This document shows positions 1 to 49,000 of a DNA stretch of 64,000 bases, one piece after another (position 1 is the stretch's first letter; every line of letters starts with the position of its first letter). The position numbers were made by a program, and so were the translations under genes. The stretch is from Euglena gracilis (Eukaryota): contig CP154954.1 of assembly GCA_039621445.1 (NCBI GenBank), forward strand, positions 7,938,634-8,002,633, written 5' to 3'. Under the pieces are notes generated by a model that worked only from the letters and a program-made list of their open reading frames with translations, was not told the origin of the DNA and did no database searches.

Positions 1-1289
1 AATTTTAGGCCATTTTAGCTATGGGTTCCTGCATATGGGTCCCAAAATGGGTCAAAAAAAAACACCCGGCGCCAAAGGCGCCGGAAAAATTATTTCGGGT
101 CCAAAACTGCCCTGGAGGGGCAGTCCTTAAGGGGCAGTTAACTAAAAAAAAAAACCCGTCCCTGATGGACCGCCCTGACCCGTGCACCCACACCGGATAG
201 CCTCATGAACACTGACAAAATCATCCAACTTTTTCATGTGAGCAATACCAAACGCGTGCCCATGCAGTGTGCCGCCATACACATTGCTCAAAACCTTGTT
301 GCATGGATACAGAGTGGGTCACCTCGAAACGCGAAACTCGAAACCATCCATTTTTTTCATTGCAATTACTTTAAATTTCTGACCCTATTCAGGACATTTG
401 CGTGCCTGTTGGCCTTAAATGGCCTAAAATGGCCTCAAATGGGGAAATTTTGGGGCTTGACCATAGGTGCTTGCCAAGGTTGACTGCTTGTTTTTTTTTT
501 GAAACAAAAAAATGTTTTTTTTTAAATATGTGTTTAAAAAAAAGGCAACAAACAAAAGTCTGGAAAAATTTGAAAACGTCACTTTTTGATGACAAAAAAT
601 TACTTTAGACCTTTTTCCTCAAAAAATGGCCATTAAACTCCCTCAAACCCCCATTTTTCACACCTTCCAAAAAACCTTTGAGATTTTTTAGTCAAAATCA
701 ACATTTCTCAAAATTTTAATTTTGAGAGATTTTGGAAGCAAAAAAATGCCACTGAAAATCCAAAGAATTTCCAAGGGAAAAAATGTCAGTAAAATTTGAC
801 TGTTCCAAAATTGGTCCCATTTTTTTGACCTCATTTTTTGACCCCCCTCCTAAAAACTAACAGTTTTCATCCCTAAAATTTTGGTGATTTTTTTGGAGGA
901 AAATGTAATTTTCCATCAAAAAACCAACCATGCATTTTGGGTTCATTTTTCAACGTAATTTTCAAAAAAATTTCCCCTGCCAAAATCCCCTTTTCCTTAA
1001 TTTTTGGTTGAAGTGTATGAGGACAGGATTTTTAAGGTTTTTTAAGGTCATCACGGGGAAGAAAAAACTTCCCCGGGGTGATTTTTTAAGGTTTTTTAAG
1101 GTTTTTTAAAGTTTTTTAAGGCATTTTGGCAAAAAAAAATTTAAGGTTTTTTAAGGTTTTTTAAGGTTTTTTAAGGCGCCTTAAAAAATAATAATGCCTG
1201 CTTGCGAGGACAAGCAGCAATTCAATTCTACTTTGAGGTGCAGTTGGAGGGGGTTGGGGTGAGGATTCTCTGGGGCAGCATACTCTCTC

Positions 1290-20700: not shown

Positions 20701-21268
20701 GCAGAGGCCGGGACGATATTATGGATGGATGAGGGCGTGCCCGCTGGGGGGCAGGGGCCGGGATGATATGATGGATGGATGAGGGCGTGCCCGCTGGGGG
20801 GCAGGTGACGGGATGATATGATGGATGGATGAGGGCGTGCCCGCTGGGGGGCAGGGGCCGGGATGATATGATGGATGGATGAGGGCGTGCCCGCTGGGGG
20901 GCAGGGGCCGGGATGATATGATGGATGGATGAGGGCGTGCCCGCTGGGGGGCAGGGGCCGGGATGATATGATGGATGGATGAGAGCGTGCCCGCTGGGGG
21001 GCAGGAGCCGGGATGATATGATGGATGGATGAGGGCGTGCCCGCTGGGGGGGCAGGGGCCGGGATGATATGATGGATGGATGAGGGCGTGCCCGCTGGGG
21101 GGCAGGGGCCGGGATGATATGATGGATGGATGAGGGCGTGCCCGCTGGGGGGCAGGGGCCGGGATGATATGATGGATGGATGAGGGCGCCCCTCCCCCCC
21201 GGGGGGGGGCCCTCAGGGGGGTGGGTGGGTGGGGGGGGACCGCCCCCCCGGTCTTAAAAAAACCCCTG
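11712..21268. mobile_element. Non-autonomous TIR element (hAT-like) expanded to 9.56 kb by an internal satellite
   Basis: TIRs CAGGGATTTTTTTAAG / CTTAAAAAAACCCCTG (15/16); perfect 8-bp TSD ATAGCAGC at 11704-11711 and 21269-21276. Confidence 0.88.
12055..21188. repeat. 50-bp G-rich tandem satellite, about 180 copies
   Basis: Monomer GATGGATGGATGAGGGCGTGCCCGCTGGGGGGCAGGGGCCGGGATGATAT. Confidence 0.97.
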
Positions 21269-23337
21269 ATAGCAGCGTGCACACCGCGGAACCCTCCATT
21301 TATCGGAAACCCCACAGCATGCGGTGTCCCGGCGGATGTGGTTGCAGCGAGCCGTTTGGACCTAAAAGCAGTGGCTGGGCGTCGTGTCTGGTGCCCATCC
21401 ATTCGTTGCAGGGGCCGAGATAGCAGCGTGCACAGCGCGGAACCCTCCACTGCTCGGAAACCCCACAGAAGGCGGTGTCCCGGCGGATGTGGTTGCGGCG
21501 AGCCGTTTGGACCCAAAAGCAGTGGCTGGGCGTCGTGTCTGGTGCCCACCCATTCGTTGCAGGGGCCGAGATAGCAGCGTGCACAGCGCGGAACCCTCCA
21601 CTTCTCGGAAACCCCACAGCACGCGGTGTCCCGGCGGATGTGGTTGCAGCCAGCCGTTTGGACCTAAAAGCAGTGGCTGGGCGTCGTGTCTGGTGCCCAT
21701 CCATTCGTTGCAGGGGCCGAGATAGCAGCGTGCACAGCGCGGAACCCTCCACTGCTCGGAAACCCCACAGAAGGCGGTGTCCCGGCGGATGTGGTTGCGG
21801 CGAGCCGTTTGGACCCAAAAGCAGTGGCTGGGCGTCGTGTCTGGTGCCCATCCATTCGTTGCAGGGGCCGAGATAGCAGCGTGCACAGCGCGGAACCCTC
21901 CACTGCTCGGAAACCCCACAGAAGGCGGTGTCCTGGCGGATGTGGTTGCGGCGAGCCGTTTGGACCCAAAAGCAGTGGCTGGGCGTCGTGTCTGGTGCCC
22001 ATCCATTCGTTGCAGGGGCCGAGATAGCAGCGTGCACACCGCGGAACCCTCCACTTCTCGGAAACCCCACAGCATGCGGTGTCCCGGCGCATGTGGTTGC
22101 GGCGAGCCGTTTGGACCCAAAAGCAGTGGCTGGGCGTCGTGTCTGGTGCCCATCCATTCGTTGTAGAGGCCGAGATAGCAGCCAGGGATTTTTTTATGTT
22201 TGGACCCCCGGGGGGGGGGGGGGGGGGGGGGGGGAGAGGGGGTGGGTGGGGGGGGGTTCCGCCGGACCATCCCCCCCCCCGGGGGGGGGGGTGTCCCCCC
22301 CGGGAGGTGGGTGGGGGATAAAAAAGAAAAAAAAATAAAAGTAAGAAAAAAAACAAAAAAAAAAACATAAATAAAAAAAATTACGAATATATAAATTAAG
22401 TAAATAAGATATAAAATAACTTTTTTCGGCGCCGCAGGCGCCGAAAAAATTCCATTTTTAGCACATTTCCGCGATTTTTCGGCCATTTTTTGTGGGTCCC
22501 CCGGGACCCCCTCCCCCCCGGGGGGGGGGGCCCTCAGGGGGGGGGGGGGGGGGGGGGGCCGGCCCCCTTCCCCCCCGGAGCGTGCACACCGCGGAACCCT
22601 CCATTTTTTGGAAACCCCACAGCATGCGGTGTCCCGGCGGATGTGGTTGCAGCGAGCCGTTTGGACCTAAAAGCAGTGGCTGGGCGTCGTGTCTGGTGCC
22701 CATCCATTCGTTGCAGGGGCCGAGATAGCAGCGTGCACACCGCGGAACCCTCCACTGCTCGGAAACCCCACAGAATGCGGATAGCAGCGTGTACACCGCG
22801 GAACCCTCCACTGCTCGGAAACCCCACAGAAGGCGGTGTCCCGGCGGATATGGTTGCGGCGAGCCGTTTGGACCCAAAAGCAGTTGCTGGGCGTCGTGTC
22901 TGGTGCCCATCCACTCGTTGTGGGGGCCGAAATAGCAGCGTGCACACCGCGGAACCCTCCACTGCTCGGAAACCCCACAGAATGCGGTGTCCCGGCGGAT
23001 ATGGTTGCGGCGAGCCGTTTGGACCCAAAAGCAGTGGCTGGGCGTCGTGTCTGGTGCCCATCCATTCGTTGCAGGGGCCGAGATAGCAGCGTGTACACCG
23101 CGGAACCCTCCACTGCTCGGAAACCCCACAGAATGCGGATAGCAGCGTGCACACCGCGGAACCCTCCACTGCTCGGAAACCCCACAGAATGCGGTGTCTT
23201 GACGGATGTGGTTGCAGCGAGCCGTTTGGACCTAAAAGCAGTGGCTGGGCGTCGTGTCTGGTGCCCATCCATTCGTTGTAGGGGCCGAGATAGCAGCGTG
23301 CACAGCGCGGAACCCTCCACTTCTCGGAAACCCCACA
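21269..23337. repeat. Continuation of the 151-bp satellite (about 10 copies, some partial)
   Basis: Same monomer resumes in register after the TIR element; interrupted at 22183-22578. Confidence 0.95.
22183..22578. mobile_element. Short (satellite-free) copy of the same TIR element; right TIR not visible
   Basis: Same left junction (TGTAGAGGCCGAGATAGCAGC|CAGGGATTTTTTTA), same internal GGCGCC-GCA-GGCGCC hairpin and CCCTCAGGGG block as 11712-21268. Confidence 0.75.
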
Positions 23338-24436
23338 GGAAGTCAGGGTCGGCGTGGTGCGTTGGTGCGTCTTTGGCGGAGGCGATCGCCGCCACCCGCG
23401 GTCAAAGGGTTTGGGGTGCAGTGGGGTGTTGGGTTCCATGGGGGACGGGGGGGGCAGAATGTTTGTTGTTGTGTGCTGCCAGTGGAAGAGTCCCACACCT
23501 ATCGTGTTTGCTTTCCCCCCCCCGCTTTGCAGTTTGTGCGACAAGGGTTACGCCGGTTATGGGGTGGGAAAATGCACGCACCAAACCGATTTTTGAGCAT
23601 GCCCCACGCAGCTTGCCAATGCACTTCAATCTGCAGCTCATTCTCGACGATGATGCCATGGCAATTCTGCCAACACCAGTGTTTGTTATTAACAGTTTGG
23701 CCACCGGTAGGGACAGAGGGAAAGGTGGCACACCGGCTGGGTTGTACGCTGTTCTGCAGGGAGTAAAATTGTATTCAGATGTCCGTACTCAGATTTGTTT
23801 GGTGACTTGCACTGTACGGGAGCAGTTTCTTTTTCACCAAGGACAAGGATATGGAGTTCGTACTTGATTTGGTGTCAGGGGGTGGTCTGGTACAGCAACG
23901 TTGCCAAGGAATTCCTTTGGTTCATCTGCCCCTCATATGCTTATGTTCCGCATCCCCGAAACCACATCAATTTGGTGCACAGCTCGAATTTAAGGCAGTC
24001 AAAGAACAGGCAGGCCATACGCGATGAGTCCTTCAACATCAATGCACGTGTCATCCCTGGGATGAGCATATGGGAAGGAACTCCTTACAGAAATAGAGAC
24101 ACAGCCCTCCCAAGGTCAAACCAATTGGTGTTTGATTGAGTGTCAAGCCTGAAGGATGCGCATTTGTGCATTTTTGGAAGCCTCCAAAAATGCGCAGGTG
24201 CGCATTATTGGAATGGACACAGGCTATGGGAAGGGGAAATGCGCATCGGTGAACACCAGGTGGGACACCCAGGTCCTGGGCTTCCGTAATGCGCAGATGC
24301 GCATTTTCATTCAAACTGCCTGATTTTTGTGGCTCAACAAGAAAGGTGCATTCCTTGGCCGTCTAAGTCTTTATTTTGATTTATTTATTTATTTGTTTAT
24401 TTATTTTTGGCGTGTTGTTTTCTGGCCACTGGTGCC

Positions 24437-24759
24437 CAGGGGATTTCTTAAGCCGGAGGGGAGCGGGCTGCCCAGCTCACGTATCCCTGCATTTTTTTTT
24501 CTCATCACAACTTCCTCGCCCTCAATGTCCAGCCTTGATCTAGCTCCATCCATCAAAATGTCGAGAAGGCAAAAATGTTTTAGAAAATTTTGTTTTTTTC
24601 ATCGACCCAGCCCTGCACAACCCCCTCCAGCCCCAGACCCCCCCTCCCCCCCATCCCCCGGGGGGGGAGGGGTCCAGCCAGCAGCTCGTTTCCAGCCAGC
24701 AACCTTTTTTCCAGCCGGAGGCTGGACCCCCCCCCCCCGGATCCTTAAGAAATTCCCTG
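24437..24759. mobile_element. CAGGG-TIR MITE
   Basis: CAGGGGATTTCTTAAG / CTTAAGAAATTCCCTG; flanks CTGGTGCC / CTGATGCC (7/8). Confidence 0.85.
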
Positions 24760-24814
24760 CTGATGCCCCCCCCCCCCGAGTCGCAACATTCTGCTCCCCT
24801 TGACCCCCCCCCAG

Positions 24815-24937
24815 GGCGGCGCCGGGCGGGTGATGGTCATCGGCAGCTGCCACATGTTCGAGGACGCGTGGCTGGACAAGGAGGAGAACGCCAAGCTGCA
24901 GGAGGTGCTCTTCGACTGGCTGATGCGCTCCCCAAAG
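24815..24937 (+). CDS. IFT52: IFT52 internal exon A (GGAGRVMVIGSCHMFEDAWLDKEENAKLQEVLFDWLMRSPK)
   Basis: Matches the IFT52 GIFT-domain motif GRxxVxGSxxMFxDxWLDKEEN; CAG acceptor ends 24814, GTGTGT donor starts 24938; 123 nt, phase 0/0. No upstream exon recognised in the window. Confidence 0.93.
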
Positions 24938-26964: not shown

Positions 26965-27318
26965 CAGACAATTGCTTAAGCACTGACCAACCCCCCCCCC
27001 CCCCCCGGGGGGGGTGGGTGACTGGTTTTTTCAAAGTGACTGACTGGTTTTTGGCCCGGACCCCTCCCCCCCCCCGGGGGGGGGTCGGCCAGGAGTGGGC
27101 AAAAGTGGCTTGAGTGACCCCGGCGCCGAAGGCGCCGGAAAAATTTTTTGGGCCTAAAATGGCCTCAAGTGACTGGAAAGTGGCCGTTTTTCTGAGTGGC
27201 CGACCCCCCCGGGGGGGGGTAGTGACTGGCTGGTTTTTTGAAAATGAGTGACTGACTGGTTTTTAAAAAAGTGGAGAACCCCCCCTCCCCCCCCCGGGGG
27301 TCGGTAAGCAATTGTATA
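26965..27318. mobile_element. CAGAC-TIR MITE
   Basis: CAGACAATTGCTTA / TAAGCAATTGTATA (12/14); perfect 8-bp TSD GGAGGGAT. Confidence 0.85.
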
Positions 27319-27428: not shown

Positions 27429-27629
27429 GTCAAGCTGAACCAGATCGACGCGGAGGACCCCGAGATCAACGACTACCACTACCTCCCCGACACCCACGCG
27501 CTGGCGGAGCGGCTGCGGGTCTGCGTGGAGGAGCGGGAGGAGCTGCCCCGCGACTTCACCGCGATGTTCGACCTGACGATGTTCAAGTTCGACACCAACC
27601 TCATCCCGGAGGCGGTGGAGCTGTACAAG
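27429..27629 (+). CDS. IFT52: IFT52 exon B (VKLNQIDAEDPEINDYHYLPDT...FKFDTNLIPEAVELYK)
   Basis: IFT52 LNQIDAEDPEI motif; CGCAG acceptor, GTGTGG donor at 27630; 201 nt, in frame with exon A. Confidence 0.95.
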
Positions 27630-32465: not shown

Positions 32466-32510
32466 AAGCTTGGAGTGAAGCACGAGGCTCTGTCGCTCAT
32501 CCACCCTCAG
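32466..32510 (+). CDS. IFT52: IFT52 exon C (KLGVKHEALSLIHPQ)
   Basis: TACAG acceptor, GTGTGA donor; 45 nt; matches IFT52 LxVKHEPLxLIxPQ. Confidence 0.9.
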
Positions 32511-34136
32511 GTGTGATCTGACCCTCTATGAAATAACTGGCTCGAAGGAACGTCGATGGCAACAGTTGACAGCACCTGCTTGGTCCACCTTTGCGCAATC
32601 TCATTGTAAGTGGAAATTCACCTGTTTGGAACTCTCTTGTCCAATGAACATCCCCGGTTGGCATTTCCCATAACTTGTTTTTCGGTGGCCGGCCAGGATT
32701 GAAAGTGATGGGTGTCACTGCAGGGTTTGGGGTTCGAAAAAGGAGTGTGCGGGGGTGGGGGGCGCCTCCCCCCTCCACAAGAGGTGGGCCCAGACCACAA
32801 CCTGCCAAGGTGGTCCGGACCGCCCCGGGGGAGGTTCGGACCCCCTGCCCCCAAAAAGGGTAAAATTTCCCTCTGGCACTTTGTGCCAAAAATTTTGGGC
32901 ATGCTTGACAAATTTCGCCCAAGAAAGTCCCCAAAAAGAAAGGGCATTTTTGGCCGAGTGTGAGGGCAAAACTTCGGTCCAGCGCTTCGTGCGGACCAAA
33001 AATCGGTCACCTAGACCGTGCCACTGTTCAGGTGGCGTTTCCCCCCCCCCCCCCACGACTGGACTGGGGGGCATCCAACCCCCCCCCCCGCCCTTATGCA
33101 GGGCCTGAGAAGGTCGGAAAACTCATTTTTTGAGGTTTTGCTTGTCCTACCGGGGGGGGGGGAATTGGATGCCAAAAAAATTGATTGGGAAAAAATTGGC
33201 GTACAGAAATCCTGCCAAATTTTTCCGGGCCTTTTTTGAAAATCCTGCCTCAAAATTTGAAAATCACCCTTTTTCCAGTCATCTTGCACACAAAACCTGC
33301 CAATTTTTTCCGGGCCGTTTTCAGGTTTGGCACCAATTTTTTCGGCTTCCAATTTTGTGGGGTCTAATTTTATCTAGCTTCAATTCCCCCCCCCCCCCCA
33401 GTAGGATGCCGGAAACCATTCCCCCCCCCTGATATCAGCCTCTTTTTTTTGCCAAAATATGGCCATTTTTTGGCAGTTTTCTTGTGAGATTTTCATTGAA
33501 TGTGCTGGACCAGGGGTCCAGCCAGCAGCTCCAAGCCAGGCTGGGGGGGGGTCCATTGAAATAAAGTTTGGGCCAGCGCAGCCACACTGAGCAGAAAAGA
33601 CATTGACACAAAGAACCGGAAAAAGATTTACAAAAAAAAATGGTGTCAAAATGGCTGAAAAATGGTGTTCTTGAAGGTTTTCTGGGTTTGAAGGTTTTCA
33701 AATCCTCAAAGTTTCAGCTGAGAATTTCAGTTCCAGCCCAGCTGGATTTGATTTCCTGCCACAATTTGGGTGCAGTCGGGTCCAGCCTGGCAGCCAATTT
33801 GACCTCTCCCAATTTGGAACCCCCACCCCCTGGGGGGGGGGGATCCAGCCAGTATTTTTTTCCCTTTCCAGTCAGCACATTTTTTTCCAGCCAGCATGTT
33901 CGCCCCCCCCCCAAGAAAACCCCTGGCTGACATTTATTTTATATATGCTCAAGGACCCCCCTGCCTTTATGTTGGGGGGGAAAAAACCTGGCCCACCCAA
34001 GTTTGCTGTTTCTTTTTGTATTTCTAACCGGCTCAGCACCACAAGTGACTTCGAGGAGGGGGGTGTAAAACAACACGTTTTACATTTAAGGCGGTGGTTT
34101 GTTGGTTGCAGGTCCTCTTGTCTCCCTCTCCGTCAG

Positions 34137-34188
34137 TTTGAAACCCCATTGCCGCCATTGTACCCTTCGGTGTTTCTGCCCACACACC
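34137..34188 (+). CDS. IFT52: IFT52 exon D (FETPLPPLYPSVFLPTH + first base of Arg)
   Basis: Pyrimidine tract and CAG acceptor; matches FETPLPPLQPAVFPP. The 3' boundary has no GT and is placed by the nonconventional intron consensus (uncertain by 1-2 nt). Confidence 0.85.
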
Positions 34189-35017
34189 GCGCAAGGCTTT
34201 TCAATGTGAAAAAATTCCCCTTACTCCCATTCCCTTGTTTGAGAACCCCCATCCCAAAAATAGCCTAAAATGATTTGGGGTCCAAAAATCATTTAAATCG
34301 CTTGAAATGCCTTAAAATGCCTGAAATGGAAATTTCTGTGGCCCGAAATTATTTGCGTTTTTATGACCAATCCCATGTTCAAAGTTTTGTATTCATCATG
34401 ACAATCAGGATGTGTGGTGTGTAGGCTTCTTTTTGAGAAAGATTGTACCCCTGGGGGGTATTATGGGCAGGCAGGGGGTAGGGCACGTTCGACCCCCCCC
34501 CCCCGGGAGGTTGGGGTTTTGGCCCTCTACCGGCCCCTCTACTGGCGCCGAAGGCTCCAGGGGCCCGAAAATGGCTAATTTCAAGAGAAGTTTGCAATTT
34601 GCCTGGGTTGGCAGGCACCGGGGTCCGACCCCTCCCCCGGGTGTGCCTGCAATGGGCAGGCACCCAATAGCACAAGGCACCCTCCCTCCCCCCAGGGTTG
34701 GTAAAAAGAAGCCTGGTGGTGTGTGGGTGTGTGTGTTTCCTTAGAAGCCAGGTTGAGAAAGAGCTCCTATCTGCAAGCACCTTAAGTAAGCTTGGGTCAG
34801 GTCAGATACAGTGTGTTATCTGAAATTGAGCAATCAAGCATTTCCCAATTTTGGGCAGTTGATGCACTGATCATTTTGTATCTTATTTCCATTGAAAATG
34901 TTCCCAAAAATTTTCATTTCCCATATTTTTTTGTTTGGATTATATTGGCGAAAGAGAAGCAATTGTATCTGATTCCAAAAGCTCCCAATGGGAACTCTAA
35001 CGAAGAGCCTTGGCATT
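34189..35017 (+). other. Putative euglenid-type nonconventional (non GT-AG) intron, 829 nt
   Basis: Ends GCG-CAAGGCTTTTC ... GAAGAGCCTTG-GCATT; 34192-34202 pairs with 35002-35012 (10 Watson-Crick + 1 G.U), i.e. +4..+6 with -8..-6; Y|R at the 3' junction; removal restores THREPPPP. Confidence 0.75.
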
Positions 35018-35107
35018 GTGAGCCGCCACCGCCAGCATTGGACCTCTTTGATTTGGATGAGCATTTTGCCACGGAGAAGGCGCGGTTGGCATACCTGACA
35101 AATAAAT
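35018..35107 (+). CDS. IFT52: IFT52 exon E (REPPPPALDLFDLDEHFATEKARLAYLTNK)
   Basis: Conserved IFT52 EPPPPALxLFDLDExF...LTNKC motif; GTGTGT donor at 35108, phase 1. Confidence 0.92.
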
Positions 35108-35130
35108 GTGTGTTTGTTGTGAGTTGGGGG

Positions 35131-35549
35131 CAGGGGCTACCCCGGGGCTGGTCCAGCCAGCCAGCATTTTTTTTTCGGCCAGCACCTCTCAGCCGGGCTG
35201 CAGACTGTGGACCGCCCGGGGGTCTGCTGAAATGAAGTTTGCGAAACCGTGCTGGATGGAAAGAGATTTTGGCACAAAGCGCTGAAAATTTTGGGAAAAT
35301 GGCCCAAAAATGGCATTGTTGGGTGGTTTTTGGGTCTGCACCAAATTTTGGCTGAAAAAAATGCCAACCCAGCTGGATTTGGGCTTTTTTGGAGCATTTT
35401 GGGGGTATCCGCCGGGTCCAGCTGGCCAGACCCCCCCCCCCCTGAACCCCCTACTCCCCAGAGGGGGGTCCGGCAAACACCTTTTTCCAGCCAGCACCTT
35501 TTTCCAGCCGGCCCCCAGGACCCCTCAGGGGTCTTTAAGAAAAGCCCTG
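35131..35549. mobile_element. CAGGG-TIR MITE 23 nt inside the exon E donor
   Basis: Starts CAGGGGCT, ends AAAGCCCTG; flanks GTTGGGGG / GTTGCGGG (7/8). Confidence 0.72.
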
Positions 35550-35974
35550 GTTGCGGGATATTTGATTTAATGGTGTTTGTTCAAAGGTCATTCTATTAAT
35601 TATGAGACAATATGACAATATGCAAAGCAATTATGTTCTGCCAGTTACCGCTTATTCGCATTTTTCATACCAAAATTTACCTACCTCCCCCCCCCCCCAT
35701 GCCCAATGAACACCCTTGCCCAATGAACAGGGGGTGTTCGGACCGTCTACATTGTCACCATAAACCTTATCTACACAGAAACCGTACCCCAAGCCCAATG
35801 AACACCCCCCGTTCGGACCGTCTAGATCGTCACCTTAGTGTTCATTGGGCTTGGGGGGGGAAGGTAAAATATTCGGATTCCTTGGCAAATCTCCCTGTTT
35901 TTTTTTATTTGGAATTTTCCGACAACCCACCCACCCACCCACTCATTTCCCTCTCCCCTGACCCTTATACATGC

Positions 35975-36546
35975 ACACACATCCACACACATCCACACAC
36001 ATCCACACCCACAACCTCAAAACCCCAACCCCGCACACCACCCACTCACACACCCACCCACCCACCCACCCACCCACACACACAACACAAACGCGCGTGC
36101 ACACACACAACACAACACAACACAACACAACACAACACAACACAACACACACACACACACACACACCAAGGTGTAAGCTTTAGAGAATTTGACCCCACCC
36201 CCTGGGGGGTTCAAGCTAGCCAGCAGCTTTTTTCCAGCCCCGGACCCCCTCCCCCCATGAAAAATACCAGCAATAATTAAATAATAAATAAATTCTTTGT
36301 TTGTTTGTTTCCAGCCACCCTTTGGGCGGCTGGAAATATATGATTTTTGCTTTTGGGGATACAAAAATGGGCAAAAATGGGTCAGATTTGGCCGGCCAGG
36401 AAGAATTTGTGGGTCAAAAAAAATCGTTTTTGGGTATTTTTGCATTTTCGATTTTTTTTGGTTCCCGGTTCGGCCCGGGGGGGGGGGGTCGGCCAGCAGC
36501 CTTTTCCAGCCAGTCCAAGTTCGTTAAAAAACGCCCTGACACACAC

Positions 36547-36601
<55 letters not shown>

Positions 36602-37160
36602 TATCTCCCCAACCCCCTCCCCAATCCCCCCCCACCCACCCACACCCACCCATGCACCCATGGGGATGTATGGGAATTGTGGGGGGTCCCCACCATCACC
36701 TGGACCCCCCCTTGGATGCTGGGAGGGGGTGTCCAGACCATGCCATTGCTTAAGGTGTACAATATGCTCAAAATGAGGGAAAACGGCATTTTTTTGCATT
36801 TTCCGGTGCACAGCACAGCACACAGTGCCGGAAAGATTTTTCGCCATTTTTAGAACCTGCCCAAAAGGGGGGGGGGGCGGGGGGACCTGGACCCTGCCAT
36901 TTCTCACTGACCCCCAGGGGGAGGGGGTCATTTTCCATTTTCAAAAAACAGTCAGTCATTTTTTAAAAAACCAGTCACCCACTTCCTACCCAGGGGGCGG
37001 GCTTCGATGTAAAGGCAGGTGGGGGGGGGGGTCAGTCCCCCCTCTGGTCCACAGGGAGACACCCCCACCTCTACAGTGAAACGTTCTGGGAAATCAAAAA
37101 AAATGCAAAAAAATTTCGGCACAAAGCGCCGGAAAGAGACCCCCCATGTGTGTGTGTGTG

Positions 37161-37201
<41 letters not shown>

Positions 37202-37829
37202 TTGGGTGGGGAGGGTTGGGTGTTGTTGGGTGTGGGTGGGAGGGGGCTCACCTTCCATCGACAAATTTTAACGATTGTCCAGTAGCCGTATTACGAGCCA
37301 CTGGAATAAGCCACTAGCCGGCTAGACCGCCCCTCCGGGGACCCTGAACTGGAATTTTTTTTCTCTGGCGCTGCGTGCCGAGGTGGAAATGGTATTTATT
37401 TTGTGTTCTTTTTGTTCCAAAAATTCCTAAAAATTCCTAAAAATGGCCAAAAATGGGCATTCCTGGCCATTTTGGGGGGGGTCAAAAAAATGCACCAGCC
37501 ACCCCCAAGCGGAACCCCCCCCCCTGGGGGAGGGTCCAGTTGGATGTCCACTGGCCAAATTTGGACAGGGGGGGGGTATATCAGAGGATTTGGTGCCATG
37601 AATAATTAATCAGCTAACCCTGCATGTTTGGGTCACCCTCCTGCTTAAGGGTTCGCAGCCTCCCTCTCCCGAGGAGGCTTGACTGCATGGCGTTTGAGCC
37701 CCCCTGTGCTGTGCTTGAGCTGGAGGGGATGGAAAGAATGCTTGGGAAGCCCGGGGGGGGGGGTCCGGACCCCTCCCAACATGGGGGGGGTCACACACGC
37801 ACGCACGCACGCACCCACCCACCCACCCA

Positions 37830-37860
<31 letters not shown>

Positions 37861-38060
37861 CACAAACGCACCCACCCACGCACCCACGCACGCACCCACC
37901 CACGCACCCACCCACGCACCCACCCACGCACCCACCCACGCACGCACCCACCCACGCACCCACCCACGCACCCACGCACGCACCCACGCACGCACGCACG
38001 CACCCGCGCACCTGCACACACGCACACACACACACACACACACCAACACGCCACCCACAC
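35975..38060. repeat. Cluster of CA/CACG/CAACA microsatellites
   Basis: Simple repeats at ~35975-36166, 36539-36600, 37147-37200, 37792-38060; further (CA)n at 40417-40468 and ~41030-41095. Confidence 0.9.
36167..36538. mobile_element. MITE inserted in a (CA)n tract
   Basis: Starts CAAGGTGT, ends ACGCCCTG; ACACACAC on both sides (TSD uninformative because it is microsatellite). Confidence 0.6.
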
Positions 38061-39078
38061 CCAAACCTCTGCTTGATGATTTTTGCCTGATGCCTGATTT
38101 TGGGTGCCAGTGGGTGCAGTCTGGAAGCTGGTGGGACCCCCCACCCCCGGACCCCACCCCCCAAGGGATGGTGTCCAGCCAGCATCTTTCTTCCAGCTTC
38201 TTTTCCAGCCAGCTGGCCAGCTGGACCTCCCTCTCCCATCAAATCTTCACATTTCTTCTGTTTGAAGCGTGGCTGGACGGTAATGGATTTTCTGCTTTTG
38301 TGGTCAACTCTGGACAAGTGGTCAAAATGGGCCAGAATGGTTTTCCCGAAAGGTATGAGGAGAACCAAGTTTGTGGCAGCGAGGGGTTTGGCTTTCAGTT
38401 CTTTCCGAAAGAAGTGTCCATGCTGAAAATTCCCCAATTCCCTGTCTGGAGCAGATGATTCATCAATGGTGCCTTCAACATGGATTATGAGCAAAGAAAA
38501 CAGTTTGCATTTCATTTATTTGCCTTTGGGGAGGGTCATTTTTTCAATTGCAAATAAAAGTCAAACTCATTGAAGACACTCTGTCATTTCTGTCTTTTTT
38601 TGTGAAGTTTCTGGCGCCGTTGGTGGCAGAGAATTTCAAAAACTAGAGGTCCCCCCTGGAGAGGTCGCTTTTTAAAATTGGGGTCGGTTCGGCAAAGCTG
38701 GGCTGGAAATAATTTCTGTGTCTTGCATTATGCAACATTGGTGTGGAGCCTGTGCTTGTGCCTGTGCGCATTTTTTTTATAAAATAACGCCAGATATCTT
38801 ACTTTTCTGTAGTTTTGGGAATTCACCTGTCAGCCAAATTCAAAAATGACCAAAATTTGATGAAAAGTTTGGTGTCAGATGAATCTGGTCCTGAGCAGGG
38901 CAAGTTGATATCATTTGCCAGAAAAAATTCTGAACAAGGAACAAAAAGGCCAAAACTTACAAAGTTTTCTATAAGCCAAGTTATGCGATAAGTTGTGAGA
39001 AAAACGCTGGCTTTTCACCCCCATCAAGGAATGGCCAGAACTCATCCCATCATGAATTGCTTGGCTGTGGATCAACAG

Positions 39079-39185
39079 GTGAGAATGACGATTTGGAGTA
39101 TTATATATGTGAGGCAGGAGAGGCGCTGGGGGTGACCAAAAAGTTGAAGAAGGACCAGGCCGACAATGCGAAAGCCATTCTGGAG
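39079..39185 (+). CDS. IFT52: IFT52 exon F (CENDDLEYYICEAGEALGVTKKLKKDQADNAKAILE)
   Basis: AACAG acceptor completes the split Cys codon T|GT; DLEYYI..AG..LGV and AK.ILE motifs; GT donor at 39186. Confidence 0.9.
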
Positions 39186-40117: not shown

Positions 40118-40240
40118 TACATTTTCAAGCAGATTGTGCAATTCAAGAAACTCAACCACGAGTTCACCCAGAAGGCACCCAAGTCCAAGCCCAACAGCCC
40201 TGTGGATGGAATGTTCTCGGCAATGGGAGAACATCTGTAA
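40118..40240 (+). CDS. IFT52: IFT52 terminal exon G (YIFKQIVQFKKLNHEF...GEHL*)
   Basis: TTTTGCAG acceptor; IFxQIVxFKKLN C-terminal motif; TAA at 40238-40240. Confidence 0.9.
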   Translation, partial: YIFKQIVQFKKLNHEFTQKAPKSKPNSPVDGMFSAMGEHL

Positions 40241-40470: not shown

Positions 40471-41950
40471 GTCACTCATTCACTCATTCACACACCCACC
40501 CATCTTCCCCCTGCTCCCCAGGTCCACAGGAATATGGGGTCCACAGGAAACCCCATTTTGGCCAAATAGCAAATTTGGGGAGAGGTGAAATTCTACAGGC
40601 TGACGGACTAATCTAGGCGGGGGGGGGGATGCAAACCCAGTTTGTGTGTGTGTGTGTGTTATGTATTTGCATTTTTTGGATAAATTTGCATTTTGGGTTT
40701 TTTTTGTTTTTTTGTGTGTTTTTTGTGTGCCCTCCGTGTGATTTTTTTTCCAGCAATTTTTGGGATTTTTGCTGACACCTAAAATTTTCTCAAATTTTTG
40801 GCATTTTTGCATTCTTTCAAGTTCTCTCCAGTGAAAAGTGTGCCTCCCGGAGGAGCTCCTGAAGGATTTTTCATGAAATTTGAGTTTGTTTTTATTTTTT
40901 TTGCATTTTTTTTGCGAGGGTCCATGTTGCATTTCCTCTGCATGTCTGGGTGGGGAATCTGGGGTGAGAGAGGGTCCCACCCACACCCACCCACACGAAC
41001 ACAGCCACACCACCACACATACCTCACACAAACATGCACGTGCACACGCACGCGCGCGCGCGCGCGCGCACACACACACACACACCCACGCACGCAAGCA
41101 CTGCTGGACTGCAAGAACTAGAAGCACGCAAGAACTGGACGCCCCCACCCCCCAAACGCACAAACACCCACACCCACCACCCCATCCACCTCAAAACATC
41201 CACACCCACAAAACCATCACCCCCCCACCCCCCCACACACATTAATTAGGACGAATTTTTCAGGGTGAAGGGGCGGGTGTTCAGGAGAGCTGCAGGGCAG
41301 CGGGGGTGTCCCCAAGGTGTGCTCGACCCATCCCGGCACACCTGAACGTGGCGTCGCGCTGCCATTTTCAACGGGGCCTAAAATAAGACTCTTTCACCTC
41401 CTTGAAGCCTGTCTTTCCTCAGCGGCCATCCTCCGGCTTGGGCTCTCGCCAAGCCTGGGGTTGGCCTCGAGGAGGGCTTTTATGTCTATGAGGTGGGTGC
41501 CGCCCGCCGCTCTGCTCCACAGCTCCAGAAGTTCTCGAGGCGCTTGGACCTTCACCTCGTCCCAAGTGAACTTGGTTTCCTCTGGCTCTTCGTCCTTCGC
41601 CTGGGTCTTCTCCTCAGGTGACTCCTCCCAGTCGGCAGCTTCCACGGCCGTCGCAATGGCGAAGGCGGCCTCCGCCACCTCCGGTGCCGCTTCCAACGTC
41701 GGCAGCACGATCTAATGCAGGAGTGCGATGGCCAGGAGCAAAGAGGCTCTGTAGGGGGCAAATTCGGCCTGCAGTAAGGCCACTCCGCTGATCTGGAAAA
41801 GCCGCTTTGATGCTTTTCCTGTCGGACTCCCACGACACAGGAAGGGGGAGGAAGGGACCAAGAGGGCGAAGCACAAGAAGATGGTGAGGTCCTGCTTTCC
41901 TTGCCGGCTGTTCTGTTCTGGTGTGTTTGTGCGTGCGCGGGGGGTGCTTC

Positions 41951-43287
41951 TTACTGCGCCTTTGTTGCCGGAGTTGGCGATGATGAGGCCTCCTCCGACA
42001 TCTTGGCGAAGCTGAAACGCCGTGGCCCCGCCCCCCCCCTCTCCCATGGTCGCTTGGTGGGGGCCCCCCCCCCTGATGGGGATGGTGGTCTCTTTCTGTG
42101 TTTCTGGGTGGGTGGTTGGGGCTGCTTGGTTGGGGGTCCCTTTTCTGGTTGGGATGTTTTTCTGCTGATTTTTTGGGTGGGAGGGTTGGGCTCACCATCT
42201 TCTTGTGCTTCGCCCTCTTGGTCCCTTCCTCCCCCTTCCTGTGTCGTGGGAGTCCGAGACCATTCGGGCTCCGCACTGCGAGATGGTGAGGTACTGTGCA
42301 CCCCCCTTTGGGCCATAATATTTTGAATTTTTGACACGACTCCCAGCCTCAAATAATGGGCTTGGAAGGCACCAAAATTTTTCCACTGACCCAGCTGCTG
42401 GACTTCTTCCACTTGCAAACCAGCATTTTTCCACCATAAGACCCCAGCCCCTCTGGTGCTGTGGGGTTTCCAGTGGGTGGTGTCCACCCCCCCCCCTCCT
42501 GCAGAATTTCTTTGGTTAGGGAGTTCACCCTTTCTGATGTCAAAGGTCTTTTACCATCCAAAGACCACAACAAATTATTTTTGTGCCCAACCATGTGGGC
42601 TGTCCTTTCCACATACTCTTTCAATAAATGCCATGGGCTTATGAGGGGGGTGTGTGGCAAATTCAAAATCTCTTCCCATTTTGGGAATTGCCACCCTTTC
42701 CTTTGCAATAAAATGAAAATTTTTTCTCCCACGAAACTGATTTTTCGCTGTGTCCTGGCTAAATCAACCCCCCTGTGGAGGGCCAAAAGCCTCCAACAGA
42801 TGATGAGTCTGTTTCTGAGCTCTTTCACAGATAGGTCTGAGAGGGGTGTGGAATTCCTCATGATGTTTTCTAGGAAATCAGTGGGGTCCCAAAAGTGGGC
42901 ATACTTGCAGACATTGGCATTCCACTTCCTTTTCAATGGAGCCAGAAGGGGTGAAAATCTCAAAGACCCAAACCCTGGGAGTAGTAAGGCTGCTGCATAT
43001 GCATTTCGTGCAGTATTGATGCTATGAACAGCAAGATCAAGGATGGCTTCAGCCATCTTGGGGACTGTGCACTGCTGCAGAGGCACCCCTTTGTGCAATA
43101 ATTGACCCACCAATGCCCTGAAGGCTGAGTCATATCTTTTGACATTTCCCAGATTTTTTATGTAAGTGTCGATACTGGACATCGAAACTTCCTGGGATTG
43201 TAATATTTGCCTGACACAATCAAGCAGGCCAAATTCCACCTTGGGGGGGGCATCTCCTCCCCCCAGCAGTTGGTGAACAGACCCCAC
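41951..43287 (-). CDS. DIRS tyrosine recombinase (frameshift at the homopolymer near 42490)
   Basis: Catalytic-type motifs LHRGVDL, HSTRGAG, LGQW, AHY split across ORFs 42349-43287 and 41951-42487. Confidence 0.88.
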
Positions 43288-46066
43288 TGGGGGGTACTAG
43301 CAAAACCTTGCTGCCTGGCTGCCTGATTGACATTAATTGGCGCCACCATGATGTCGAAGCCCAGTGGGGTACAATCAACAGACAAATTAGGTCTGGGTTT
43401 AACATTAATCTCTGAATCCATTGGGGAATGATGCTCCAGGGAGGGTTGGCATAAACTGGGGGGAGACCCCTTAAATCTGCCTTCAGAGCATCCACCAACA
43501 AAGCCCCTTGGTGGGGGTATCGACAAATGAACTTGGGGAATTTTTTGTTGCTGGGTGTGCAAAACATGTCCACCTCTGGGGTGATGTGGTTTTTGAAAAA
43601 CTTCAGAATCTGGTGAAAAATGGTCAGATTCAGGGTATAATCCCCTGGATCTTTTTGCTCCCTGGTCAGGGAGTCTGCCAATTGTTCTTTTGTGGGAACC
43701 CAAACCACCTGCAAGTTGATTTGCCTTTCTTGGCAATGGTACAGAAGGGGTTTTAGGATGGAATTTAAATATGGCTTTTTGCCTCCCCATTTTGTCAAAT
43801 AACTGACTGCCACCTGGCTGTCCACATGAAGAACAATGGTTTGTTTTGGTTTTGCCAAAGCCTTTACAGTTTCCACCGCAGACATCAATTCTTTTTGATT
43901 GATGTGAAGGACATGCAGGTCCCTCCAGAAATCCTGGACCTTTTGACCAGACTTTTTGTCCAGCCCCCCCCATTGCCAGGTGCTGCTGTCTGAGAACAGT
44001 TCCTGAGAGGCCTGGGATTGAAAGGCTCTGCCCACACCTGGCTGCAAAAACGTTTTTAACTCCACAATTTGATCTTTGACCCCCTGGGGAATGGTCAGGG
44101 TGTGGTCCCAACCCCACTTTGTGTGCAAATCCACCATTTTGCAAAGTTGATCTGTCAGAATTCTGAGAAAAGGCATTGAAACTAAATAGCTTCTGACTTG
44201 CCCTACAATAGAGCTGAGTTTTCTGCAGCTCATCTTTTGTGCTGTCAGCACCTTTCCTAATTCCTTTCTTAGGGATTTTAATTTTTCCTGTGGAATTTCC
44301 AGCTGGCCTTTTTTCAAATTGATCCACTGGCCCAAATGCTTTATTTCTTGTGTTGGTTCCAGACATGATTTGGGGAGGTTTATTCTGAAACCTGCCAGTA
44401 AAAGATCTTTTTTCATTTCTGCCAAATGCTGGGCTGCTGTCTTTTTGCTGGGGGCTAACAGCAAAATGCCGTCTAGGTAGATGAAAACTACCTTTCCTTC
44501 CTTCCTCCATTTCCTTTCCCAGACTCTCATGAGAGTCATAAACTTTTGTGGCAGGCTGCTTAACCCAAAGCATGCAGCTTGAAATTGCCACGTTTCCCCC
44601 CCCACTTGCATGCAGACATGCTTTTCCAGGCTGCTGTGCAGCTTTAAATGGAAATAAGCATCTTTCAGATCTATTTTTCCACAGAACCAACCCTTTCTGA
44701 GATATGGGAAAATGTTTCCCATGTGTTCCAGTCTGAACTTCTGGGGGGTGAAATAGTGATTTAACTGTCGACAATCTGAAATTAGTCTTTCCTTGGTCTT
44801 TTCCCCTTCTTTTTTGGAAATTATGAAGTAAGGGACAAAATGTTTTGCCTCCTCTGGGGGGATTTGCCTGGTTGCCCCTGCACATTCGTATTCTCTCAGA
44901 ATTTTTTGGGCAGTCATTACTTCCTTGGGGGCTTTGAAGGGAACTTTTAAGGACATTAGAGGGGGGAGGGGAAGATCTGCCATGACCCCTTCCCTTATCA
45001 GGTTTAATACCTCTCTGCTGGCACCTGCCTTTTCCCAATGGGGGATACTGGCCTGCAGGGCTTTGTAAGGGGGCACCCCTGGATGTAATGTGTCTGGGGA
45101 TTCCACAGGCCCCATCACTGGGGTCCTTCCCCCTGGCTGCCCCATCACTGGGGTCCTCTCTGGCTGCCCCATCACTGGGGTCACCTCTGGCCCTGCCATA
45201 GGGCTGCTCAAAGACAGGCTTTCCCCCTGTTTTTGAAAGATGGGGGAAGGTCTGTTTCTGCAGTGGGGAGGTACATATACAGCTGGGGGGTGTGGGCTGA
45301 TTATCTTCTGGGGGGGCCCTGGTGTAGCCAATCTTGGGCCTCCCCCCCAAGGGCTGTGGTCTTGAATGCATTGGCCTCCCATGGCCACCTGATTTTGATT
45401 GAAATGGCCTCCATTGGCCTTGATATTTTTCCTCTGGCCTCCATTGGCCTCTTGGATATAATGGCCTCCATTGGCCTGCCCCTGAAGGGGGGGCTGCTTG
45501 CTTGGATGGGCAGCTCCTGAGGGGTTTTTGATTGAGGGAGCTGTGGGGTAAGTTGGACATACCTTCCCCCAGTGGGATCTTCCCAGGTTGGGATACAGGC
45601 TGCCATAGCCTTGCAACTGGGCCCACTGCCCTCTTGAATGCTGGCTGCCATAGCCTTGATTCTGGGCCCCAGGCCCTGTTAAATGATGGCTGCCATAGCC
45701 TTGAGTTTGATTTGAATCCTTTCGATTTCTGATATCTCCAGAGAGGCTGCCATAGCCTTTGCTTTTTCCCCTGGAAGGGGAGGAATTGGGAAAAAGGGGT
45801 GGAGTCTGTTGGACCTGTGATGGTAGTCCCCCTCTGTCTTCTCTTCCTGACCACTGCTGTCCATGGTCCATGGCCATCATTTTGAGTGGGGGATCCTGAA
45901 AACTTTGAATTGCTGGGGGGTGGGGGGGTTGCGATGGCCACGGACTGACGTGCTGCTGCCGCCTCATCACCTTCTGCAGCTGCTGCTGTGTGTCCACCTT
46001 CCCCAGCTGTTTTCTTGGAAGTTCGTTGGAGTTCTTCTTGGCAGTTTGAATTTCTTTGCAGATCAT
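43158..46066 (-). CDS. DIRS pol: reverse transcriptase, RNase H, phage-type adenine methyltransferase-like domain
   Basis: KIDLKDAYFH, CFGLSSLP, IYLDGILL (YLDD expected), FSDSS/HINQKEL/VDS/ADSLTR (RNase H), VDMFC...YANPPW...VPHW...WW (MT); apparent 1-nt indel in the G run near 43290. Confidence 0.9.
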
Positions 46067-49000
46067 TCTTCATGGAAGTCCAGTGTGATGCTGTCTTCTT
46101 AATTGAAATATTTCTGGGATAATTCCAGTTGAACTCGAAGAGTTGAATTCTTCCTCCTGGAAGTCGAAGGTCAGCAAAAACTTTTGATCCACCAGTTGAT
46201 AATTCGCCGTTCTTCGGTGAATGTAATGCTCCTTGTAAATATTTTCCAAGTGAACTCGTAGCAGTAAAATTCTTTCTCCTTGAGGTCGAAGGGCAGAATT
46301 AGGAATCAGCCAACTCCGGCAACAAAAAGCAGTAAGAAGCACCCCCCGCGCACGCACAAACACACCAGAACAGAACAGCCGGCAAGGAAAGCAGGACCTC
46401 ACCATCTCGCAGTGCGGAGCCCGAATGGTCTCGACCAACCTGTTCCAGTAAACTTCAACCCAGCGTGCAAGATGGCGATGACGACATTCTTCTCCAGGTC
46501 GTGTAGTTGGTCCTTAGTTGGTCCTTAGTTGCACCAAGTTGAAAATGAACTCGGTCCACGATTGTTCGAGGAGCGGTCCTTCCTCGGTGAGCTGGGCAAC
46601 GAGATTATTCTCCACGTCCATCTTGTATTGGATTGATTGCAATCTTCACCAATTATGGATCTTGTTGGTACTTGTTGATCTTGCTTGCTTTGCTGTGCGA
46701 TAGCTTGTGATAGCTTCCCTTTGTAGCAGGGCTACGTCAGCCAACTGCCGGCGCGAAGAGCAGTAAGGAGAAGACGCAAGGCAAGAAAAACAAAGAACAA
46801 TAGCCGGCGAGGGAAAGACAGGTCCCATCGAGCCAAAGTGTGGAGCAAGGGTGGTCCGCCTACCCTTGTCACGGAAAGCCTGAGGGCCCTTTTTTATTTT
46901 AAAAAACCACCGGCCTTCTTGGGCTTTTCCGGCTGGCCTCCGTCCTCTTTTGGGCGCCATCGCGTCCGTCCAGGGTGGGCTCCCCGCCAAAGGAAATTCA
47001 AGGTCAGCCCCGAAAAGCCCAGCTTTGTCGAAGATTTTTCCGTGCGAACGCAGTCGCAGGTACTCTTTTTTCGGGAAAGCGAGGGGTAGCGCCGAAAGCC
47101 ACCTCGGGCCACCTCGGGCTCCGCACTTTGCCCTTGTGAGGCCATGCCTTGTTCGCCGGCGGTGTTGTTTGGATCGTTCGTTGTGCGTTGGGTTAGGAGT
47201 CCCCGCTTAGTGTCTTTTTTCGTCGGAGCTCGCTGATTCTTAATTTCCCCTTCGACCCAGAAGAAAGGATCTTCAATACAAGAACCCTGACAATTGGATA
47301 TCAAAGGATAGGTCAACTAAATTTTACGGAAAGCGACCCTCGTGCAGAAGATAAAATCAAATTTTGTCGACAAATTAAAGATTTCAATGACAAAGGCCCC
47401 CGGAATTTCAAAGACAAAGAAGAGCATCGCTGGTCAACAAGAACTGGCTGCCGCTGCAGCTGGACGACCTGACAGTGTGGTGCAATCGTGGCGAATCGTG
47501 GCTGTCCCTCCCCTCCCAGAAAAAATTTCTGATCACCCACCCAGCGACAGCCACGGACTGTGGCAGACAGTGGTCAGAAAAACCTGAAGGACACAAAAAG
47601 AAAGACAACTGTCAGGCCACTACAGCCAAGGCCATGGAGGCCTATATCCCAGTCACACAAATACATCGTTCAAGCTGGGCCACGGAGGTCACAAAAGCAA
47701 TGACCACATGGAACAAAGGCCAGGGTGGCCAACAATATCAAACCCACGGAGGCCGACTCCACAAGCAGATGCCCAGTGGCAGGGGCAGGACAGGTCCGGA
47801 ACACCCCCCAACCATTTCTTCATCACAACCCCTTTCAGGGGCAAAGGAGTGGCCCCCAGAGGCCCCACAAGATTTTCAATGGGCATGGCGTCACAGAACA
47901 AAGAAAAGTCAATGGTGACTTTCAAAGTTTCAAGAGAATTATTCTCATCAAGGCCCCCGGACCCCTCATCACGCTCAAGTCCAACAGTTTCCTCAAACCC
48001 CTTCAGGGGTAAAGGACTGGCCCCCAGAGGCCCCCCAAGATCTTCATTGGGCATGGCGTCCCAGAACAAAGACAAGTCCATGGGGTTTGTCAAAATTTCA
48101 AAAGGCGGGTGGACTCAACATCAAGAGTGCCAGTGGGGCCAGGATTTTTGTCAAGGCCACTGGGGCTAGCATTATTCTCATCAACCTGGTCAAGACCAAC
48201 AATTTCAAGGCCATTGGGGCCATCAATTATCAAAAGGGGGAAAACCCCAGAAGTTAAAAGGCTGTTCCCGCAAAATGGGAATTCAATATACTGTGGCAGG
48301 CCTGGGAGGAAGCCCCAAGAGGGGCAGTGGATGACAAGTTCTTCAATGCCCATGGCAGGGGCAAACCAAAGCAAGGGGGAAGGGGCCACTACGGAATGTC
48401 AATTGACAACACCAACGACAAAGTGGAGGATGCACAAACAATTGATTTTTTTTGTAGTTTTGTACCAGTGCATGGTGTGGGCAAAAAACCCTGTGTGTGA
48501 GATTGTGTTTGAAATTGGTGGGTTCGAGTGGGGACTTTCTTAGGTTAATTAGGGAAAATGGAAAAAACCTAATGTGAAAAATTGGTCGGCCGGTCTTGAA
48601 AACTTCCAAGAATCGGCCTTGCTTGGGTGACTTTAGGTGGGTAGGCTCCACCCCGCTGCCGTGAGGTGTCCGGGACTGTGCAGCCCTGGCCAGGGGTCGG
48701 TGGTCTCTGCAGGGCACTGGGGGCTCGCTGGGGCCTGGTTGTTCGTGGCCGCCTGGGCACCCGGGCAACCGAGGGGGGCGCGGCATGGCCCCTTGGGCAC
48801 CCCTCCTCGGCTGCAGCTCCCTGTCAGCGGCCCCCAGCGCCCCTCGAGACCCCGGTCCTCCGGCCGGAGCTGACCAGCTGCAGGCACCCTCCGGGCTGTA
48901 TGGGCTTCACCTGCCTGACCGGCCGCCCCTCCAGGCCCCCCCTGGGGTTGCCCGGACGGTACTGAAGCCGCTTAGGATCCCTTCGGGGCGGTCGGCCCAC

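Follow-up and report, generated by a model that had tools for sequence, protein, structure and literature searches.

The IFT52 gene and its exon D/E junction

The analysed stretch, called the window below, comprises 64,000 nucleotides of Euglena gracilis genomic DNA (contig CP154954.1, positions 7,938,634 to 8,002,633, read on the forward strand) and carries the IFT52 gene. Between two exons of this gene, D and E, lies an intron of 829 nt with non-GT-AG borders, and the removal and the origin of this intron are the subject of the present analysis. The gene was recognized by the translation of its exons, which leads to IFT52 proteins. The best full-length match is P0002, the transcript-derived E. 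gracilis protein EG_transcript_9433 from EukProt. Residues 237-483 of this protein were found by tblastn on seven exons of the window with 97-100% identity, all of them on the forward strand: exon A (24815-24937), exon B (27429-27629), exon C (32466-32510), exon D (34137-34188), exon E (35018-35107), exon F (39079-39185) and exon G (40118-40240). For exons D and E the borders were set by tblastn together with an enumeration of the junction; exon D ends with ...QFETPLPPLYPSVFLPTHR, its last codon being split, and exon E reads EPPPPALDLFDLDEHFATEKARLAYLTNK. For five of the six IFT52 introns in the window junction enumeration gave a GT-AG solution of the AG/GTGTG type (here and below a slash between bases at a junction marks the cut). 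The C-D intron (32511-34136) and the E-F intron (35108-39078), which enclose the region of interest, are both of this kind.

At the D/E junction, every combination of donor and acceptor within +/-12 nt was enumerated and kept if it reproduced the protein P0002. Only four introns are compatible with it, namely 34189-35017, 34190-35018, 34191-35019 and 34192-35020, each 829 nt long. Their borders are GC..TT, CG..TG, GC..GT and CA..TG, i. e. none of the four is a GT-AG or GC-AG intron. A sequence-only reading of this DNA had claimed that the junction has no GT, and this is confirmed. Both P0002 and P0122, its cluster mate from E. longa, read THREPPPP across the junction. Since the conserved Glu of this motif is kept in the transcript-derived protein, the removed piece is fixed at 829 nt.

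One conventional intron could be drawn at this junction, and it was the outcome that the sequence-only reading had named as contrary to its proposal: a GC-AG intron at 34191-35022, which would give CAC CGC CCG without the Glu. The GC at 34191-34192 and the AG at 35021-35022 do exist and are in frame. However, removal of 832 nt never reproduces the protein, a pyrimidine tract before 35022 is not present, and the transcript-derived proteins of both E. gracilis and E. longa retain the Glu. Moreover, Glu or Asp is found at this position in 94 of the 94 IFT52 homologues that have the downstream motif (out of 122 proteins, 28 of which lack this motif). A conventional GC-AG intron is therefore highly improbable here.

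The mRNA would contain the codon CGT with the first two of the four solutions and CGC with the last two. As both codons specify Arg, the protein evidence cannot separate these two junctions. The register 34189-35017 is preferred because both of its junctions then have a pyrimidine-purine step (Y/R), namely C/G on the 5' side and T/G on the 3' side, and the spacers comprise 3 and 5 nt, as laid down in the published rules for euglenid nonconventional introns (PMC4770533, PMC12501133). In these introns, positions +4 to +6 are reported to pair with positions -8 to -6, with Y/R at both junctions (PMC4770533). The rule N3-CDG...CH'G-N5-6/R, tested by knock-in, specifies one spacer of 3 nt, one of 5-6 nt and a purine at the start of the downstream exon (PMC12501133). 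The spacer sum of 8 is fixed by the protein, and the split into 3 and 5 would follow from the Y/R rule. Very probably 34189-35017 is a nonconventional intron that is removed as a piece of 829 nt; it is the only one within the window.

The two ends of the intron are complementary. The 5' arm at 34192-34202 (CAAGGCTTTTC) and the 3' arm at 35002-35012 (GAAGAGCCTTG), putatively a left and a right terminal inverted repeat (TIR), form an 11-bp helix with ten Watson-Crick pairs and one G-U pair. An 11-bp stem beginning 3 nt inside the 5' end and ending 5 nt inside the 3' end had been part of the sequence-only reading and was found at exactly these positions. With the helix at +4/-6 and the Y/R junctions, the geometry published for nonconventional introns is present in the D/E intron. 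The duplex energy of the ends is -22.5 kcal/mol, a value attained by 2.4% of 3000 random segment pairs with the same spacing when the pairing was allowed anywhere within the segments; in the D/E intron the position of the helix is fixed beforehand by the protein. From 34192 to 35012 the helix has an outer span of 821 nt, and 829 - 821 = 8. When the intron is folded as a whole, exon D pairs through its CA-rich end (34178-34190) with a GT run at 34716-34745 that flanks an element nested in the intron (see below). This pairing is an alternative structure that competes with the terminal helix.

Some observations concern the remainder of the gene. IFT52 residues 1-236 have no match in the window, including positions 1-24814 upstream of exon A. 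Thus either the assembly is interrupted at this place, or the intron preceding exon A comprises more than 24 kb of satellite and transposon. The acceptor before exon A (24798-24814) is a pure C tract (cccccccc CAG), which fits the C-rich pyrimidine tracts reported for conventional introns of E. gracilis (PMC11170887). In exon D, positions 34176-34178 read CTG (Leu), whereas a Pro stands there in the IFT52 proteins of E. gracilis, E. longa and other euglenids (FPPTHR). The difference may reflect an allele, the strain or an error of the assembly.

Neighbouring elements with 8-bp target-site duplications

A scan for CAG...CTG ends with matching flanks revealed a MITE (miniature inverted-repeat transposable element) of 323 bp at 24437-24759, 55 nt upstream of exon A, with the ends CAGGGGATTTCTTAAG / CAGGGAATTTCTTAAG and the flanks CTGGTGCC / CTGATGCC (7/8 identical). 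Sensitive blastn with this element as the query retrieved a loose family with a common terminus, the consensus of which is CAGGGnnTTTCTTAAG; when the ends were paired, seven elements resulted, all given here on the forward strand.

The strongest case is an element of 9,557 bp at 11712-21268, which has CAGGG...CCCTG ends and sits in a 151-bp satellite. Its flanks are ATAGCAGC / ATAGCAGC (8/8), and the satellite array ends at 11711 and restarts at 21268, i. e. exactly at the element ends. The target of this element is uninterrupted in 69 satellite monomers, with 0 expected, and these 69 uninterrupted copies prove the element. The string used for this count has 24 bases and is contained in each of the 69 monomers. 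The satellite itself forms long arrays of ~95% identity at 1100-11711, 21268-22182 and 22579-23900 and fills the region upstream of exon A. Inside the element, a 50-bp unit is repeated ~183 times at 12056-21188 and is G-rich on the forward strand (GC skew ~0.5). As this array lies between the CAGGG...CCCTG ends, the 9.6-kb element is a small transposon inflated by an internal tandem array. A second copy of its left end, CAGGGATTTTTTTATG, is found at the same satellite target ATAGCAGC at 22183-22578, where the right end is missing. This copy represents either an independent insertion that was truncated or a junction that was duplicated.

Another member of the family lies within the nonconventional intron itself. 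This nested MITE of 294 bp (34422-34715) has the ends TAGGCTTCTTTTT / CAGGCTTCTTTTT, and its flanks at 34414-34421 (GTGGTGTG) and 34716-34723 (GTGGTGTG) are identical at 8/8 positions and at length 8 only, a match that the GT-rich surroundings weaken somewhat. The 354-bp MITE at 26965-27318 has the ends CAGACAATTGCTTA / TATACAATTGCTTA, which match at 12 of 14 positions, and the flanks GGAGGGAT / GGAGGGAT (8/8). A composite element of 865 bp in the C-D intron (33099-33963) has CAGGG at both ends and the flanks CCCTTATG / CCTTTATG (7/8); it contains a further right terminus at 33925. In the next intron, which is a GT-AG intron, a 419-bp MITE at 35131-35549 begins with CAGGGG... and ends with ...GCCCTG, flanked by GTTGGGGG / GTTGCGGG (7/8). 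Finally, the 372-bp element at 36167-36538 (CAAGG... / ...GCCCTG) has the flanks ACACACAC / ACACACAC, but as it lies in a CA microsatellite their 8/8 match is uninformative.

In the six informative elements, 7-8 of 8 positions agree at a flank length of 8, and the agreement is near chance at lengths of 3-7 and 9-12. The earlier claim that MITEs with CAG(G)/CAAGG...CCTG ends and 8-bp target-site duplications (TSDs) surround the intron thus holds, and for more elements than had been listed. By our reading of their ends, four of the seven elements would, with their own flanks, satisfy the core of the published splicing signature (CAG and CTG, with a purine as sixth base of the target); the purine at position 6 is present in six of the seven. 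Five of the elements (24437-24759, 26965-27318, 33099-33963, 35131-35549 and 36167-36538) share runs of C with runs of G behind them, as in the hairpins CCCCCCCC GGGGGGGG, as well as motifs like GGTCCAGCCAGCA...TTTTTCCAGCC; the self-matches of the window are dominated by these runs and motifs.

A blind scan of 7,161 inverted-end pairs in the window gave no 8-mer matches above the shifted controls: 11 matches were obtained at zero shift, compared with 3-17 in seven of the eight shifted controls and 167 at shift 6. The lack of an excess is due to C-run/G-run pairs, which swamp the scan. The evidence for the elements therefore rests on ends that were defined by family likeness and not on the blind scan. 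A scan with exact seeds for inverted ends and repeats likewise found little in the window.

The CAGGG/CAAGG ends fit the pattern 5'-YARNG, which we take to be that of hAT termini. Together, the 8-bp duplication and the CAGGG ends point, tentatively, to the hAT superfamily. The hAT elements Hermes and hobo produce 8-bp duplications (PMC2803484, PMC3276498), as do P elements (PMC3276498, Table 3).

Relation of the intron to the elements

The putative terminal inverted repeats of the intron, CAAGGCTTTTC / CAAGGCTCTTC, are of the family type. Its 5' end CAAGGCTTTTC matches the right terminus of the element at 35131-35549 at 10 of 11 positions. When a weight matrix built from nine element termini was scored over 127,970 positions, the intron's 3' end attained rank 95.

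The most likely interpretation is that the intron began as a non-autonomous, hAT-like DNA transposon with CAGGG/CAAGG...CCCTG/CCTTG ends, which would have inserted into a coding exon and generated an 8-bp TSD. The putative left target copy would be ACACCGCG at 34184-34191 (five exon nt plus intron +1 to +3), and the right copy GCATTGTG at 35013-35020 (intron -5 to -1 plus three exon nt), both on the forward strand. In the pre-mRNA, the two intron ends would pair in the 11-bp helix, and a euglenid machinery, probably non-spliceosomal, would cut 3 nt upstream and 5 nt downstream of the helix at pyrimidine-purine steps, whereupon ...CACACC would be joined to GTGAGC.... Because 3 + 5 = 8, removal of the element plus one duplicated copy would restore the original reading frame. 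Later, a younger element of the same kind would have inserted within the intron (34422-34715). Deletion of the helix span and one 8-mer from the DNA does give ...FLPTHREPPPPALDLFDLDE..., with the conserved frame ...THREPPPP.... The sequence-only reading had held that splicing in this register removes an element and exactly one TSD copy; the arithmetic part of this stands, in that the removed length equals the helix span plus 8, and the intron is a candidate copy of such an element. A relative that lacks the D/E intron would be expected to read ...CCCACACACCGCGAGCCG... at this place. Among 47 metagenome loci no euglenid genomic copy of IFT52 was found; long matches there reach at most ~55% identity, and most of the loci resemble transcripts of other eukaryotes.

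As a whole, we consider the statement that this is a nonconventional intron, removed by pairing of its ends and derived from a hAT-like insertion with an 8-bp TSD, to be probable. For the transposon ancestry of the D/E intron taken by itself, the balance is only slightly favourable. Several observations weigh against it. The two flanking 8-mers, ACACCGCG and GCATTGTG, are identical at 4 of 8 positions, and identity of at least 4/8 at the same spacing is found at 12% of 39,000 window positions (p = 0.12). All four mismatches are transitions, so that the 8-mers agree at 8/8 positions in purine/pyrimidine class, as do only 0.5% of 39,000 control positions (p = 0.005), but this transitions-only criterion was picked after seeing the data. 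Hence the identity alone is at chance level and the transitions-only pattern is suggestive. Of the earlier claim of a decayed TSD, the count of 4/8 with transitions only was reproduced, and significance of the identity was not obtained. In addition, intron positions +2 and +3 are reported to be non-conserved, and a pure duplication model needs later drift to account for this. The intron's 5' end takes only rank 1079 of 127,970 with the terminus matrix. Furthermore, CA-G and the pairing of the ends are needed for splicing anyway, and part of the likeness to element ends is thus not independent. By blastn, no homologous interior copy or sister of the intron was detected in the 64-kb window, which, with this scope, is a weak negative. 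Local alignments of intron and elements consist of short AT-rich patches only (z up to ~6 against simple shuffles). A scan of ten long open reading frames (ORFs) of the window turned up a reverse transcriptase only and no transposase. The target preference of hAT elements, nTnnnnAn (PMC2803484), is not clearly visible in the elements: T is at position 2 in four of seven and A at position 7 in two of seven.

Other points of this kind concern the helix. The third pair of the intron motif is A-U (CAA/TTG), and the CDG/CH'G signature is thus not present. Single changes in this motif abolished splicing in a knock-in assay, and the signature is reported to fit 61.2% of the nonconventional introns of E. 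agilis and to be lacking in 38.8% (PMC12501133). The terminal helix is also absent from the minimum-free-energy fold of the whole 859-nt stretch. In our view this is a common failing of folding over long distances and no evidence against the helix.

Alternatively, the intron could be an ordinary member of the nonconventional class that resembles the elements by convergence or by coincidence, with the helix and CA-G kept by selection for splicing. It would then stem, for example, from double-strand-break repair with filler DNA or from the conversion of an older intron, and 3 + 5 = 8 would be a numerical accident. By our own estimate the latter has an a priori chance of roughly 5-10% if each spacer can take many values. 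The flank match of 4/8 (p = 0.12) and the lack of interior homology to local elements speak for this explanation. Moreover, the authors who described an eight-nucleotide direct repeat at the junctions of a strain-specific, recently gained gapC intron of E. agilis took such repeats as a sign of break repair (PMC4770533). Against a coincidence stand the six informative elements of this one window, whose ends are of the same kind and whose duplications measure exactly 8 bp, one of them inside the intron, and the rank of 95 among 127,970 that the 3' end attains in likeness to a terminus. The full agreement of the two 8-mers in purine/pyrimidine class likewise speaks for a duplication. A direct repeat would yield Y/R at both junctions, and in the published introns, too, both junctions have the same base classes, as expected from such a repeat. 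Short junction repeats are reported in 84.4% of E. agilis introns (PMC12501133) and, like the eight-nucleotide repeat of the gapC intron, fit an origin by insertion with a TSD. On this evidence, mere coincidence seems to us rather unlikely.

The relation could also run in the reverse direction, the CAG...CTG elements being descendants of mobile nonconventional introns, e. g. of excised circles that re-integrated. Excised nonconventional introns have been reported as full-length circles (PMC11282704), and the end features are common to elements and introns. Yet the location in non-genic satellite, where empty sites are intact and the duplication of 8 bp is clean, is typical of a transposase that makes staggered cuts in DNA. 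A 9-kb tandem array is present in one element, and no reverse transcriptase is linked to the elements, the sole one in the window being part of a separate, presumably DIRS-like element. Descent of the elements from introns is thus very unlikely.

Possible significance for euglenid nonconventional introns

The origin of nonconventional introns and the mechanism of their removal have been open since the 1990s, and the origin was still called unclear in papers of 2018 and 2025, as far as these are accessible. In 2014, it was stated in the field that no transposable element was known in euglenids. Against this background, it is tempting to generalize that hAT-like CAG...CTG elements, inserted into exons, gave rise to all or most nonconventional introns of euglenids and that the splicing rule of these introns is a record of transposition. 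We put this forward tentatively, as an idea with somewhat less than even prospects. If it were true, the helix would lie at +4/-6 since the inverted ends begin there, and the unpaired 3 + 5 nt would be one 8-bp target copy, split at its fifth base. Remnants of the duplicated target would be seen in the Y/R steps, in the junction repeats described as 'slidable' and perhaps in an A and a C at exon positions +2 and +3. For the latter positions a tendency to A and C is on record in 43 and 30 of 55 introns, respectively. The hobo target motif GTNCGNAC ends in a similar way (PMC3276498), a resemblance that is only a lead. Under the same premise, any element of this kind whose exonic target has a purine at position 6 would be a seamless intron at birth, and the splicing machinery would be a host or transposon-derived system that acts on RNA to remove such elements.

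The contribution of the window is that elements of the same genome, with the end features that sufficed for splicing in the knock-in work (PMC12501133), produce duplications of exactly 8 bp, a length equal to both spacers together. This turns the MITE hypothesis into a sharp numerical prediction, namely that 8-mer identity should occur at one register only and be most pronounced where introns are young. Existing Euglena assemblies, in which introns are annotated by the hundreds of thousands, allow a check of this prediction.

Other features of the window

A retroelement, which we take to be DIRS-like, lies on the reverse strand at 41800-46430. In its ORF of 949 aa, a domain of the reverse-transcriptase type (E = 1.6e-12) was recognized along with a Dam-methylase-like match, which is weak, and it contains inverted repeats at 41822-41978 and 46309-46407. 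At 60532-62691, an intronless paralogue of the E. gracilis transcript EG_transcript_4936 is found with 83-90% identity across the aligned segments. It is rich in repeats, has no Pfam match and shows frame breaks near 61046 and at 62569-62638; when further introns were sought in it, none were found, only these frame breaks. It may be a pseudogene or an element-borne gene. A comparison of the window with Rfam gave no match.

Comparison with known systems

The D/E intron resembles the described euglenid nonconventional introns (Milanowski et al. 2014, 2016; Nomura et al. 2025; PMC3935182, PMC4770533, PMC12501133) in its non-GT-AG borders and, in the preferred register, in the helix from +4 to -6, the spacers of 3 and 5 nt, the Y/R junctions and the downstream purine. 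It also falls in the published length range and stands among conventional introns of the same gene. It differs from them in having CAA/UUG instead of CAG/CUG and in carrying a nested transposon. The comparison with hAT MITEs gives a divided picture: the neighbouring elements share with these the 8-bp TSD, the short TIRs, the lack of coding capacity and the length of 0.3-0.9 kb, whereas the intron itself departs from them with a duplication of 4/8 and no sister copy in the 64-kb window.

A large part of the origin argument is already known. An origin of nonconventional introns from MITEs was proposed in 2014 (PMC3935182). A review of 2024 in Mobile DNA reads the pairing CAG/CTG ends as TIRs and points to frequent 'TSD-like' junction repeats (PMC11282704). 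The spacer rule and the splicing of synthetic inserts were published in 2025 (PMC12501133), and the 8-nt repeat at a gained intron is known from the gapC case mentioned above. In its accessible parts, the review of 2024 differs from the present argument in that it names no element family, duplication length, superfamily or link to 3 + 5 (PMC11282704). A literature search of incomplete coverage found nothing that connects an 8-bp duplication or hAT elements with nonconventional introns. Thus the idea as first put forward for this DNA is new only in part: the MITE origin, the TIR reading and the spacer rule had been published, and the explicit link between 3 + 5 = 8 and the TSD length of hAT-like elements in this genome did not turn up in that search.

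The closest parallel outside the euglenids is provided by introners. The introner elements of Amoebophrya, as described in the accessible part of PMC7789003, have inverted ends and a TSD in the exon, and the element is removed together with one duplication, which makes it harmless at birth. As in the D/E intron, the borders deviate from the canonical ones, and the exon ends are brought close to each other by the inverted repeats (PMC7789003). Their direct repeats, on the other hand, comprise 3-5 nt and not 8 (PMC7789003). Introners are read as spliceosomal, whereas the removal of nonconventional introns is taken as non-spliceosomal in the literature, and introners are defined by families of near-identical introns, whereas the IFT52 case is one intron in one window; the label 'introner system' in the sequence-only reading, which implies many such copies, overstates the case in this respect. 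Splicing out of an element with one duplication is reportedly also a feature of the transposon-derived introners of Micromonas and Aureococcus (Huff et al. 2016). Placed among these systems, the IFT52 D/E intron is an ordinary member of the nonconventional class, combined with an argument about its origin that is plausible, testable and partly new.

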